64,000 nt of DNA from assembly GCA_004022145.1 (NCBI GenBank), contig RCNU01000008.1; one strand, 5' to 3'. The notes below the pieces were generated by a model. The model searched no databases and was not told the origin of the DNA. It was given only the letters and a program-made list of their open reading frames with translations. The DNA is from Paecilomyces variotii. Lineage: Eukaryota. Position 1 is the first letter of the stretch. The number at the start of each line of letters is the position of its first letter. Made by a program: the position numbers and the translations under genes. Below are positions 27,621-31,729 of the stretch, in pieces.

Positions 27621-29960
27621 TGAGTGGCTGAAGCCTTCATTATCAGCTGATTCTATACACCAACCAAACCACCAGCATGACGGAAGCTCATACCCTAACT
27701 AACTACTGTCTTAGAGCTTACGGAGACAAATCGGCTGTCTGCTGGACATCCCCGAGAACTGCGCATCGTGTCATTCTGTGTGGTAAGATCCGTGTTGTTG
27801 TTGTCACACGGACTTCTACAATACCACGAGTCCACGACCGATAGTTAGCGCTGGCCAGAACCCGATATTATTATTGAAGCTTACGTTCAAACGTGTAGTG
27901 GACATCAGACTTAAGTTACGGTTCGGGAAGGCCTTAATTTTAGAGCCAGTACGATCAAGTGAGACGACAGAGTGTCTGCCGTGGTGGCCCATGGCCCGAA
28001 TTCCCCGATATGCAACGCAAATCTCCCCGGGGCAGCCTAACAAACAAGTTGTCCGACAGAAGCCCGGCGAGTTTCCGAGCGCGACTGCAGAACGTCGTGG
28101 AGCAGAGAGCTCTTCTTCACCTTTCTGGCAGGGAACATGGCGATAACGACAACGTTCGATACTGACGGGGAAAGAGTCCGGATGGGTCAGACTACCCGCC
28201 CTGTCGCAGAACTGGTTGTTTGCAACCATCTCTGCGTCACCCGTCTGGGCTACCACCATGTCCCCGGGGGGTCAGGCCCCAGAGGCTAGGAGACGCTAGA
28301 AGGCCGCGAGAAGGGGAAAGGAACGTTGAGCGGACGGATAGCAGTGGGTTACTTGATCACTGATCGCTATTAGGAGATCCACCGAAAAGAACACGGAGAC
28401 TGCGGCCGTTTTCCGTCTCTATCTAGAGGATTCCGCTCTGGAGGGTCGACCAGGGTGAGCAGGATGAGGCCTTTCCTGGTGTTGTCCCGTCTTCCCGACA
28501 TCCATGCCTGTTCACATATTGGCCATCACACTGTCCACAGGGCAGCGGCTGAGGGAAGTCGGCGCTTGAGATGCTGGGCCTGAGTGCGAATAGCGTGCGC
28601 TAGAGCGGACCCGAAATTCAGAAGTCGGAGCAGACGGTGGCTGATTAAACGGGTCTTCGCTCCGGGGATCATTGTGGTTCTTGGGCCTTGTCACTAACCT
28701 AGTCCCCTAGGACGGGTTAGAAAGTTCCAACTAAGGGGAGCAGCCAGAACCACGCGAGAAATATGGGCAGAGCAGGCCGGAGACTATACGCAGGGCAGCC
28801 CCAGCGGCGTCAAATCCCATCCGCTCCGTTCCTGGATCCTGAGCGCCAACAGGAAAAGTCCCCACTGCCGTCAGCGGCATCTCGTTTGGGGACAACCGGG
28901 GAGGTAAATAATAATAATAATTATGGTAATGGATTAGTTTAGTTTTCCCATCCTTACACCTGCGGTGGCCCACAGGGCGACACAGATTGATTGACAAGAC
29001 GAGACGAGGCCAAATCCAGACAAAGAAAGGTTAAGGCTGTCGGGAAAGGGGCTTGTTGGGACTGGACGATACGGTAGTCTACCTTTCTGCCGGGACGACA
29101 GGGAATTGAGCCGCCTGGGAAACGCCTTGTGCTAAAGAAAGCTCGTCTCCTGTTTGAGTTGAAAGGAGAGAAAGCAGGAAAAAGCATATATCTACGCGAC
29201 CTGTTCCCCCCTCTCAGTTGTTCCAAGTCTGGACCATAGATATCTCACTCCCGTCATCCTCTCCATCCCTTCCTTTCTCTCGCTGGCCTGCCACAGCCCT
29301 CCCTTGCGATACATCCATTCCCGGCCATCCAGACTCCGTGTCACATCCTCCTTGCCGTCCGCCGCGTTAGCTGGACCCTGATATTCGCCTGTGGTCGGAT
29401 CGCTGCCGATACATTTATATCCTGCATACACAGTTTCCATTGCCGCGGCGCATCCGCGACGCACCCGCAGCACTCAAAGCGACCTGTCGAATAGCACCGT
29501 CTCCACCGTCCATTTGCATTTGCAATCCGGAGGCCCAACTCTCCTGTCCTTGTCACAGTCACATTCCTGCCCTACATCTGGCACCCACGGAGGCGTTGTC
29601 CCCCCGGCTACGCGGAGCGCACCATTCAAAAGGATCGCCTCTTCCGATCTTACCTGCAGCTGCATCGTCGCGGTCCCTGTTTGGTATCCCAGGAACTTTT
29701 CCCGTGTACCCTGTAAGCTTGGCTGCACACAGCTTCAGCTATCTTTTTTGGGTCTATTGTGTGTCTCTTTTTCGTTCATTCTATTTAAGGTAAGTCAGCT
29801 GGATTGTCGAGTGTTTGTCTGCCCGAGACATATATATATACATCCTGCATCGCCCTTCCCCTGGTCACCCCAAACTCCGAAGCTATATTTTATATCACCT
29901 ATACCATCGCCAGTACTATTTACCAGTATTCTAACAATGGCTATTTGCGCAGAGTTCAAC

Positions 29961-30065
29961 ATGATTCTCAGGGATCTGTCAGCGACCAACATGGGACGAG
30001 GAGCCTACGATACAACGGGCGTCAAGAAGCCCGGCGCACCACCACCACCGCCGAAGCGACGCTGA
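29961..30065 (+). CDS. Candidate microprotein, 34 aa (24 aa from the second ATG at 29991): MILRDLSATNMGRGAYDTTGVKKPGAPPPPPKRR
   Basis: First ATG after an ATG-free region (28932-29789) and a canonical intron at 29790-29952. Both ATGs are in CAAC-ATG context. A second canonical intron lies downstream at 30241-30301. Confidence 0.65.
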   Translation: MILRDLSATNMGRGAYDTTGVKKPGAPPPPPKRR

Positions 30066-31729
30066 GGGCGATTGGAACTTTCATGCCCAGATGTCCAAAC
30101 CTTCCCATCCATGATGATGTCGGCGAATTCCCATCCTACCAGGGTGGAAGGACCAAACCCAGACCTCGCGTGGCCATTAAGTTGGACTGGGCAACAAGGC
30201 TTAACGTGTCTCACTTGTGTTTTGGGACACACTGCATCTTGTATGTGCTGTTTCCAACTTATTCTATCTTTTTTTGGGAGCATTTACTGACAATGTTGCA
30301 GAACCTCGCATCTATTGGATCTTCGCTCGGTTTCAAGCTGTTGGCTAGCGCTTCGCCTTGCATGCTACAACACGTCTTAATCATTAGTGTCGACACGTCA
30401 CTTGTACCAACACCGTTACATCTCATTCGCCAGCGATTTGTTCTCATCCTTTCGGCCATAACCACTTTTGCGGCTCAACACTACGATTTTTCTTAATTCG
30501 CGGAACGTTTCGCCCTGTACCATCTATTCGATACCACAAAAGTGTTTGCTTTCGATGTTCCGGCGTTATGACATAGACAGGATTCGGGTGCTTTTTTTCT
30601 TTTCTCTTTTTTTCCTTATCCTGGGCAGCATGGGTGATACCACAAGAGCTAGACTATTAGGGACCTCGCGGTCCGCTGTTTTATTTTCTATTTGTCTTTT
30701 TACTCGTCTCTTTTTTTGGGGATACTCGTGTACAATATACAGAATGAGGAAACAGGCGGGAGAGCATGCTCGGAGCCAGGGTTTGTCGGGCCATATGGTC
30801 TGGACATGCGTTGGTTTCCATTATCGGAGCACGTGGGATCGGAGCTATGCATCACGAATATGTTTATCTTTCCCTCTGATATACGCTCTAAGGCGGGTCT
30901 ATAATTGACTGAATTCACTTTTCAACATCCATTTGTCATTAGACTATAAAATTTGCTATTGCCGTAGCGCATCATGACTCTTTGTGCAACGTGATTCTAC
31001 TACTTCAGCTGCCCATGTTACAAGGGTCGAACACTACCTCGGATTTCAGCTGCAGCACGTCTCTTTTTAGCCCCATTTCACCATGTTCCTGCACCCCCAG
31101 CACAATTATGTCAGACTCGGAATCGCTGGAAATACAAAAGTTGGTCTTAGTTGAGTCCTGGTGGCCTGACGTAATCCTACTGCCATCCGCATCGACCTGC
31201 TGCAGCGATCAGTTCAGCTGTCTTGTGTAGATACTGTCCTGGCTGCTGGACCGCCAGCACTCTCTCACTCTCTTTGCACACATGGGCGCTTTGCTGTTGC
31301 TGCATCAGACGGTCAACTTGTCCAAGCCACCCCGGCATCCGAACCGCGGGTGCGGGAACATCCCGTGACTTGCGCGTCGTGGATCCGCTCCAGCCTGGAC
31401 AGAGTGCGCTAAACCGCTTTCAGCCGCCTCCATCATCGCCCGGCATTGAACGACCCAACATCCCCGGCTCTCATCGACATCTTCGCAGCTTGGAACTCAC
31501 GATACCAACTCATCCCCTCTGTCTGTCTGGTTCTATACGAAGAGATAGTCAACATTTCCGGGACGGCACTCTTCCAGCTTCTTACCCCTTCCCTGGCCCG
31601 GCGACCCTCGGACGTTTGTCACCTACATCACATCACGCAACGGAGCTCTCGATAGCCATCAGTATTGATACCCACCGTCTCTAGCCGCCCATCTGGACAC
31701 CGGCGCATAATCGATTATCACAGACGACC

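Follow-up and report, generated by a model that had tools for sequence, protein, structure and literature searches.

A conserved short open reading frame on a spliced transcript upstream of Rab5 in Paecilomyces variotii, and its putative micropeptide family in filamentous ascomycetes

Could a conserved micropeptide be encoded by a fungal transcript that looks non-coding? To our knowledge, deeply conserved micropeptides are rare, and hardly any have been reported from filamentous fungi. The question arises here for a stretch of 64,000 nucleotides from Paecilomyces variotii (GenBank assembly GCA_004022145.1, contig RCNU01000008.1), the whole of which is called the window below, where a short open reading frame (sORF) of 34 codons lies on the plus strand, upstream of the Rab5 gene, on a spliced transcript. 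Two described systems come closest to it. One is tarsal-less (tal), also named polished rice, whose ~1.5-kb transcript was once classed as non-coding and which is polycistronic, with separate 11-codon open reading frames (ORFs), according to the sections of the report cited here (PMC1852585). The other is the arginine attenuator peptide (AAP), encoded by the upstream ORF (uORF) of arg-2/CPA1, which precedes the ORF of the carbamoyl-phosphate synthetase small subunit and stalls the ribosome in cis at the stop codon, as described in the cited part of the source (PMC11550727).

Several features of the present locus recall tal. In both cases the transcript is of the ~1.5-kb scale and looks non-coding, and the function lies, or here would lie, in very short ORFs; both families have a strict short core motif, namely LDPTGXY in tal and GRGAYDTTG here; the number of units varies by lineage, tal having one 32-residue ORF with two motifs; and both families were recognized only by cross-species comparison, as far as the cited sections on tal describe it (PMC1852585). 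However, the two sequences are unrelated, and one family belongs to arthropods while the other belongs to Pezizomycotina. In tal each unit is an 11-codon ORF of its own, whereas members of the present family have a single ORF of 30-35 codons, or two to three units within one ORF, and the translation and function of tal have been proven experimentally, while those of the present sORF are proposed (same sections of PMC1852585). The likeness to the AAP is that both are fungal, that both have about 24-34 codons and encode a conserved peptide, and that both are the first ORF to be scanned, as the cited part of the source has it for the AAP (PMC11550727). In contrast to the AAP, no conserved main ORF follows the sORF, whose transcript seems to stop short of Rab5, and the two peptides have no relationship in sequence. 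As argued below, the sORF is very probably a real coding gene under selection, and we consider it likely, with less assurance, that it is a stand-alone gene for a disordered peptide of ~32 residues, which would act in trans as a linear-motif ligand.

There are 19 public runs from 7 studies that cover part of the window, and four of them, from four studies (X2, X6, X7 and X9), were mapped on positions 26000-34000. The assembled contigs of X6, X7 and X9 trace a transcript of three exons, which is assigned to the plus strand because its introns are bounded by GT..AG. Exon 1 (29263..29789) is a 5' untranslated region (UTR) without any ATG; its 5' end is approximate, since the contigs start at 29263 (X6, at a depth of 3), 29455 (X9) and 29475 (X7), and its donor joint is present in X7 and X9. 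Intron 1 (29790..29952, 163 nt, GTAAGT..CTAAC..CAG) lies in the 5' UTR and is skipped in the contigs of X7 and X9, that is, in two studies, with the joint placed at 29787>29951 and the cut at +2. Exon 2 (29953..30240) carries the sORF. Intron 2 (30241..30301, 61 nt, GTATGT..TACTGAC..CAG) begins 175 nt 3' of the sORF stop codon, within the 3' UTR, and is skipped in X6, X7 and X9, that is, in three studies. Exon 3 (30302..30873) is a long 3' UTR with an approximate 3' end, the contigs ending at 30812 (X7), 30862 (X6) and 30873 (X9). The two junctions that the initial annotation had predicted from the letters, 29789/29953 with its GTAAGT, CTAAC and CAG signals and 30240/30302, are therefore both found in RNA contigs. 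As a positive control, the Rab5 introns and the intron of a putative ribosomal-protein S7 gene are skipped in the same runs. No contig of X6, X7 or X9 lies in 30873-31496, and the Rab5 contigs start at 31496/31504, which is only a weak hint that the two transcripts are distinct, as gaps in contig cover, here or 5' of 29263, do not show that RNA is absent; a separate RNA of ~1.2-1.4 kb is a sensible model, though unproven.

The region in front of the sORF is exceptional in its lack of start codons. The gap between the ATGs at 28929 and 29937 measures 1008 nt and ranks first in length among 1049 ATG gaps on the plus strand of the window, where the mean is 61 nt and the next-longest gaps are 632, 449 and 448 nt, the last of these being the leader of Rab5. 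This ATG-free run (28932..29936) comprises the promoter, the 5' UTR exon and most of intron 1. Its first 858 nt (28932-29789), noted at the outset as about 860 nt devoid of ATG, contain no ATG and 20 CAT triplets, so the depletion is strand-specific. With a first-order Markov model 10.3 ATGs would be expected there and none of 2000 simulations was ATG-free, a contrast that is inflated because the stretch was picked for its absence of ATG. The leader is also C/T-rich, with a GC skew of about -0.28 across 29150-29750. A TATA-like CATATAT (29185..29191), located 78 nt 5' of the earliest RNA contig start (29263) and followed by the C/T-rich zone, may represent the core promoter according to the motif scan and the pyrimidine skew, in agreement with the promoter-like zone proposed earlier near 29185-29290. 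The only intervening ATG, at 29937, falls inside intron 1, as had also been noted.

The sORF itself (29961..30065, 34 codons and a TGA at 30063-30065, MILRDLSATNMGRGAYDTTGVKKPGAPPPPPKRR) begins at the first ATG of the spliced RNA, 8 nt after the end of intron 1, and its start codon has the context TTCAACATGA, with A at -3. An in-frame TAA is present three codons 5' of the start, and therefore the peptide cannot be extended N-terminally in the spliced RNA. A second in-frame ATG follows at 29991 in the context ACCAACATGG, where AACATGG gives a strong start context; both ATGs and the stop are just where they had been annotated. Only one copy of the sORF occurs in the window. The later ORFs of the spliced RNA have 78 and at least 106 codons, the second running past the modelled 3' end and reaching 117 codons in genomic DNA; they are not common to the relatives and look like noise. 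This accords with the earlier statement that no convincing long protein is encoded before Rab5.

Is the sORF conserved as a protein, or as a mere stretch of nucleotides? Relatives of Rab5 exon 3 were collected from metagenome contigs, and 80 of 288 confirmed loci were kept. Searches with tblastn and a hidden Markov model of the peptide found the sORF in 8 of these 80 loci (L001, L005, L015, L017, L011, which equals L012, and L007, which equals L037), so that the comparative set consists of 7 distinct sequences including the window. The copies always share the strand of Rab5 and precede its exon 3 by 1.6-2.9 kb, and each has 30-34 codons and its own stop (TGA, TAA or TAG). In the codon alignment of the 7 sequences the core is formed by the 12 codons N10-V21 (29988..30023, NMGRGAYDTTGV), whose encoded residues are invariant, and the numbers of variable sites at codon positions 1, 2 and 3 are 0, 0 and 10. 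For the core, pN (non-synonymous) is 0 and pS (synonymous) is 0.55, while the summed pN/pS of the whole ORF is 0.27; between the window and L001 there are 17 synonymous and 2 non-synonymous differences. The probability that all 10 variable sites fall on third positions by chance is C(12,10)/C(36,10), or about 3e-7, if shared ancestry is ignored. The tails differ in length by whole codons, all insertions and deletions being multiples of three, and the distance from the core to the stop ranges from 9 to 13 residues. The string GRGAYD.TG is invariant in an alignment of 20 sequences. A blastn comparison of 28000-32100 with the sORF-bearing loci aligns only at the sORF (4/8) and at the Rab5 exons (8/8), which makes the sORF an island of conservation, and no ORF common to the lineages was found between the sORF and Rab5, where there is only patchy nucleotide similarity in the closest pairs. 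The pattern of substitution is that of purifying selection at the protein level, as judged from these alignments.

The same data bear on the view that the transcript is a non-coding RNA with a fortuitous ORF, and that the conserved element is one of RNA or DNA. Such a view could draw on the lack of any long ORF and on the combination of two introns with a long RNA, which is typical of long non-coding RNAs, while a search of Rfam over 22000-32000 at E<=1 returned 0 matches and is neutral either way. However, core variation confined to third positions, retained start and stop codons and tail insertions or deletions in multiples of three speak against it, so we already disfavour this view and give it hardly any credence. 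The copy syntenic with Rab5 and the synonymous bias of its changes are what would be expected if the initial annotation was right in proposing a real small gene that standard annotation misses, and the spliced contigs agree with this.

The arrangement in front of the sORF is shared as well. A consensus donor (GTGAGT or GTAAGT) is located 100-150 nt 5' of the start codon in all 7 lineages, and a branch-like site and an AG acceptor are located 8-22 nt before the start codon in 7/7, the acceptor being YAG in five and AAG, as judged by eye, in L017 and L011. Within 475-1032 nt upstream in the 7 lineages, the only ATG lies inside the putative intron or is split by its donor. The ATG-free leaders measure 341-858 nt in six lineages, that of L005 being cut by the contig end, and in simulations 0 to 100 of 2000 sequences per lineage were ATG-free. 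In the case of the second intron, its conservation in the 3' UTR was considered and is not claimed: intron-like signals occur 117-175 nt after the stop in 4/7 lineages, and about one per region occurs on the opposite strand too.

Two further observations concern intron 1. In one X6 contig (record 11) intron 2 is spliced while the acceptor of intron 1 is read through, back to 29842; therefore, some RNA that retains intron 1, or pre-mRNA, is present. The intronic ATG at 29937 is in-frame with the sORF, and on retention of intron 1 it would give a form of 42 residues. In-frame intronic ATGs with no stop before the start codon are also present in L001 and L005 (both 24 nt upstream) and in L017 and L007 (both 36 nt upstream). 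Intron retention would therefore lengthen, not abolish, the peptide in five of the seven lineages.

How widely is the peptide distributed? A profile of 8 peptides was compared with 1.84 billion cluster representatives, and matched 209 of them at E<=1e-3 and 55 at E<=1e-10. We analysed 157 proteins, comprising the best 150 of the 209 profile matches and the matches to the 42-codon unspliced ORF of the window. The motif xR[GS]xYDxxG is present in 153 of them, once in 143, twice in 9 and three times in 1. The family pattern reads as an N-terminal M-[IV]-x-R-[DE], 4-6 variable residues, the invariant core N-[MF]-G-R-G-A-Y-D-T-T-G and a Pro/Lys tail of ~10 residues. Named members come from Eurotiomycetes (Penicillium steckii, P. 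antarcticum and Aspergillus tanneri), Dothideomycetes (Saccharata proteae and Aureobasidium), Sordariomycetes (Cytospora mali, Thermothelomyces fergusii and several Xylariales, with Eutypa lata and Xylaria arbuscula among the named taxa) and Leotiomycetes (Pseudogymnoascus), all of them leotiomyceta; the lineage of six taxa was checked, and the class of the remaining named taxa is presumed. All names seen among the matches are "hypothetical protein", and none carries a function or family name. The motif strings, looked for in 8.1 million PubMed Central papers and 0.36 million preprints apart from their supplements, gave only one unrelated antibody paper, and no such family appears in the titles among the matches listed from the fungal micropeptide literature. 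Judged by these comparisons, this is a previously unnamed family across four classes of Pezizomycotina, earlier present only as scattered hypothetical proteins.

Most of the database models are over-extended, either N-terminally or past the true stop, and the unit of 30-35 residues is unrecognised in them. Since many entries carry N-terminal extensions of up to 614 residues and end in the motif, the sORF might be taken for the terminal exon of a larger protein with undetected exons further 5'. However, exon 1 contains no ATG, an in-frame TAA precedes the start by three codons, and the upstream leaders are ATG-free in six lineages. In addition, the extensions in the 34 matches inspected are mutually unrelated and look like read-through of UTRs or introns by gene callers. 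In 125 of the 153 proteins a Met precedes the Met11 position by 10-13 residues, and in 120 of the 153 the predicted protein ends no more than 16 residues after the motif. A missed longer protein thus appears highly improbable.

The family also bears on the two isoforms, arising by leaky scanning, that had been suggested from the two in-frame ATGs. At the Met11 position 104 of the 153 proteins have M and 28 have F, the other 21 having Q, S, W, E, Y, N or another residue, and so a second start is no feature of the family; from these sequences the position is that of a side chain under selection, not of a conserved second start codon. The first ATG of the window has A at -3 as well. A minor product of 24 residues may still be made in P. 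variotii, as the context of the second ATG is strong and some forms in Xylariales start at the second Met. It may be added that the codon of Asn10 is AAC in 7/7 sequences, while third-position variation affects 10 of the 11 remaining core codons, and that AAC together with the codons of Met11 and Gly12 gives AACATGG (29988-29994), a strong start context in all 7 DNA sequences. The invariant AAC could be due to chance (n=7) or could indicate use of the second start in the lineages concerned.

Tandem units within one ORF were found in 10 of the 153 proteins (P0023, P0029, P0035, P0036, P0050, P0058, P0088, P0090, P0097 and P0151), with two or three units separated by acidic or short spacers. The repeated part is GRG[AS]YDT[TS]G with a Lys/Pro tail. 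Among 11 matches with more than one stretch that were inspected, five have a species name, and 5/5 are Xylariales (Rostrohypoxylon, Annulohypoxylon, Xylaria and Anthostomella). Such repeats raise the idea of a pro-peptide or leaderless signal, in which the unit would be processed from single- or multi-unit precursors and would act outside the cytosol or between cells. The acidic spacers, a KR pair after the basic tail in P0029 and the KRR end of the window peptide would suit this idea. On the other hand, neither a hydrophobic N-terminus of the signal-sequence kind nor a C-terminal Cys motif or CaaX was seen when the family sequences were inspected by eye; 143/153 members have a single unit, and most of the family stops directly after the tail. 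Dibasic ends are not universal either, other tails ending in PK, PR, PQ and more, and the gene adjoins housekeeping genes rather than a biosynthetic cluster. Consequently, we regard processing of this kind as improbable, and the same low rating applies to its broader form, a portable bioactive peptide (an aromatic residue or Met, then GRG[AS]YDT[TS]G and a Lys/Pro tail) that would be released from leaderless precursors as a signal between compartments or cells.

The tails of the 153 proteins contain 47% Pro and 19% Lys. The initial annotation had remarked on the GRGAYDTT core, a polyproline run and a basic KRR tail, all of which the window peptide does possess, its Pro run being 5 residues long; that of L007 is 2. 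From these features it had raised the possibility of an SH3-, WW- or profilin-type ligand, and no specific assignment of this kind is supported by the family. PPxY, as expected in a WW-type ligand, is present in 0/153 tails. Profilin ligands need about 6 or more consecutive Pro, and runs of at least 6 were found in 6/153 tails, the window peptide having 5. SH3-type strings of class I ([RK]xxPxxP) and class II (PxxPx[RK]) occur in 47/153 and 78/153 tails, respectively, where chance matches are expected at such Pro and Lys contents, and they are no commoner than composition suggests. AlphaFold2, run with the 20-sequence alignment, predicted no secondary structure, with a predicted local distance difference test (pLDDT) value of 71 and a predicted template modelling score (pTM) of 0.18. 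The model is consistent with a disordered linear motif.

The relation to Rab5 should be read with the sampling in mind, as all copies at the DNA level adjoin Rab5 because the loci were fetched via Rab5. A tree of Rab5 exon 3 was built from the window and those 34 loci in which the upstream flank reached 2.2 kb or more and at least 150 residues were matched, the other 46 loci being dropped. The clade of orthologous Rab5 has 22 rows, 9 with the sORF and 13 without it within the fetched flanks. One of the latter is L003, whose Rab5 matches the Cadophora malorum (Helotiales) protein with 100% identity and which is without the sORF in 10 kb upstream, although the family does occur in Leotiomycetes. 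Because these 13 of 22 rows, including L003, have no sORF nearby, the linkage looks like synteny retained in some lineages, not a requirement, as far as the sampled contigs tell. The possibility that Rab5 is the main ORF regulated by the sORF was considered and rejected, as Rab5 has its own ATG-free leader of 448 nt and its own contigs from 31496/31504, and 22 ATGs lie between the two.

Taken together, the reading that we favour is as follows. Positions 29263-30873 (+) would constitute a stand-alone spliced mRNA with the 34-codon ORF as its only conserved coding content. Owing to the long ATG-free 5' UTR, the scanning ribosome would meet the start of the sORF first and would translate it, on an mRNA laid out with an intron that ends 8 nt before the start codon and with a 3' UTR of ~800 nt that holds a second intron. 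The product would be an intrinsically disordered peptide of ~32 residues, acting in trans as a short linear-motif ligand, in which the core may confer binding specificity, with an auxiliary contact made by the basic, polyproline-type tail. The strict conservation of a disordered peptide implies a conserved partner, and the target would be a conserved cellular one. We infer action in trans because nothing conserved lies downstream to be regulated, because there are 17 further ATGs in the RNA after the stop, and 22 before that of Rab5 is reached, because Rab5 has its own ATG-free leader, because the core-to-stop spacing varies by several residues, and because units repeated two to three times in one ORF in 10/153 proteins fit a modular ligand.

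Several observations weigh against this preferred reading. The RNA evidence consists of assembled contigs, by which neither the transcript ends nor the abundance can be fixed. Run X2, on record as metatranscriptomic RNA-Seq, contains genomic DNA over 27966-32682, where two intron-containing genes are unspliced; as its contigs at the sORF locus and at Rab5 are unspliced and have adapter ends, which points to DNA in the library, it was rejected as expression evidence. The 7 DNA sequences are related by descent, so that the counts per codon position do not represent independent events. As for the ORFs with two or three units, they are putative, being either gene predictions of others or ORF calls. 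No Pfam model scored above its cut-off with 5 peptides, the best being a low-complexity Pro-rich model at 15.2 bits against the 29.1 required, and ESM Atlas gave no usable match. A long intron-bearing 3' UTR is unusual for a productive mRNA and would invite nonsense-mediated decay. Furthermore, strict conservation of a short peptide is also a hallmark of cis-acting arrest peptides, and a Pro run of at least 3 is present in 118/153 tails; Pro runs are a known cause of slow elongation.

The last points lead to the main rival, a cis-acting arrest peptide. Here the core would sit in the exit tunnel and the Pro-rich tail at the peptidyl-transferase centre, so that the ribosome stalls, perhaps in an eIF5A- or polyamine-dependent manner, and the stall would control either the mRNA that carries the sORF, by way of no-go or nonsense-mediated decay aided by the 3' UTR intron, or the transcription or translation of something downstream. 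The whole chain of 30-34 residues would fit in the exit tunnel, and the Pro runs would suit a stall. The long 3' region after the sORF, with an intron 175 nt past the stop, could serve such decay, and the intron-like signals at 117-175 nt after the stop in four of the seven lineages point the same way, to be read against their background of about one per region. In addition, conservation at the peptide level defines regulatory uORFs of the AAP type, as stated in the cited part of the source (PMC11550727). However, the target is wanting: there is no main ORF, and no downstream ORF is common to the lineages. The 17 ATGs that come after the stop and before the RNA contigs run out, the 22 before the ATG of Rab5, and the separate leader and contigs of Rab5 do not suit regulation of a downstream ORF. 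A core-to-stop distance of 9-13 residues among the 7 DNA sequences also argues against this rival, the two- and three-unit ORFs are hard to explain by it, and of the 22 loci that have an orthologous Rab5 and an upstream flank of at least 2.2 kb, 13, L003 among them, are without the sORF. We therefore hold an arrest peptide to be unlikely, and retain the trans-acting ligand as the preferred interpretation.

Some observations on the surrounding DNA may be recorded here. A contig of X6 that starts at 30919 is preceded by 15 non-genomic T, which reads like the poly(A) of a minus-strand RNA arranged tail-to-tail with the sORF transcript; this RNA may arise by divergent transcription from the promoter region of Rab5. 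The gene model of Rab5 (31730-32716) is confirmed by joints at its introns 31805-31869 and 31934-32078, and its exon 3 carries a long acidic, Gly-rich insert. The gene from 33449 onward, which we take from its N-terminal translation to encode ribosomal protein S7, has an intron at 33605-33872 that is likewise confirmed by joints. On the other side, in the otherwise gene-dense window, the ~7 kb at 22100-28900 contain no reading frame of at least 170 codons, counted from stop to stop, on either strand, and low-depth RNA contigs of X6 and X7 are present at 26000-27400.

For annotation, the locus offers an example of how a leader devoid of ATG, a 5' UTR intron, the position as first ORF and variation restricted to third positions can together mark a gene of 100 nt. 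For the biology of these fungi, a stretch of 11 residues is effectively invariant across four classes, to which the main industrial moulds and numerous pathogens of plants and animals belong. If the improbable idea of a portable signal were true, most filamentous ascomycetes would share a system of peptide signalling that has been overlooked because its gene is only ~100 nt long. Identification of the partner of the peptide could reveal a regulatory link in core fungal cell biology.

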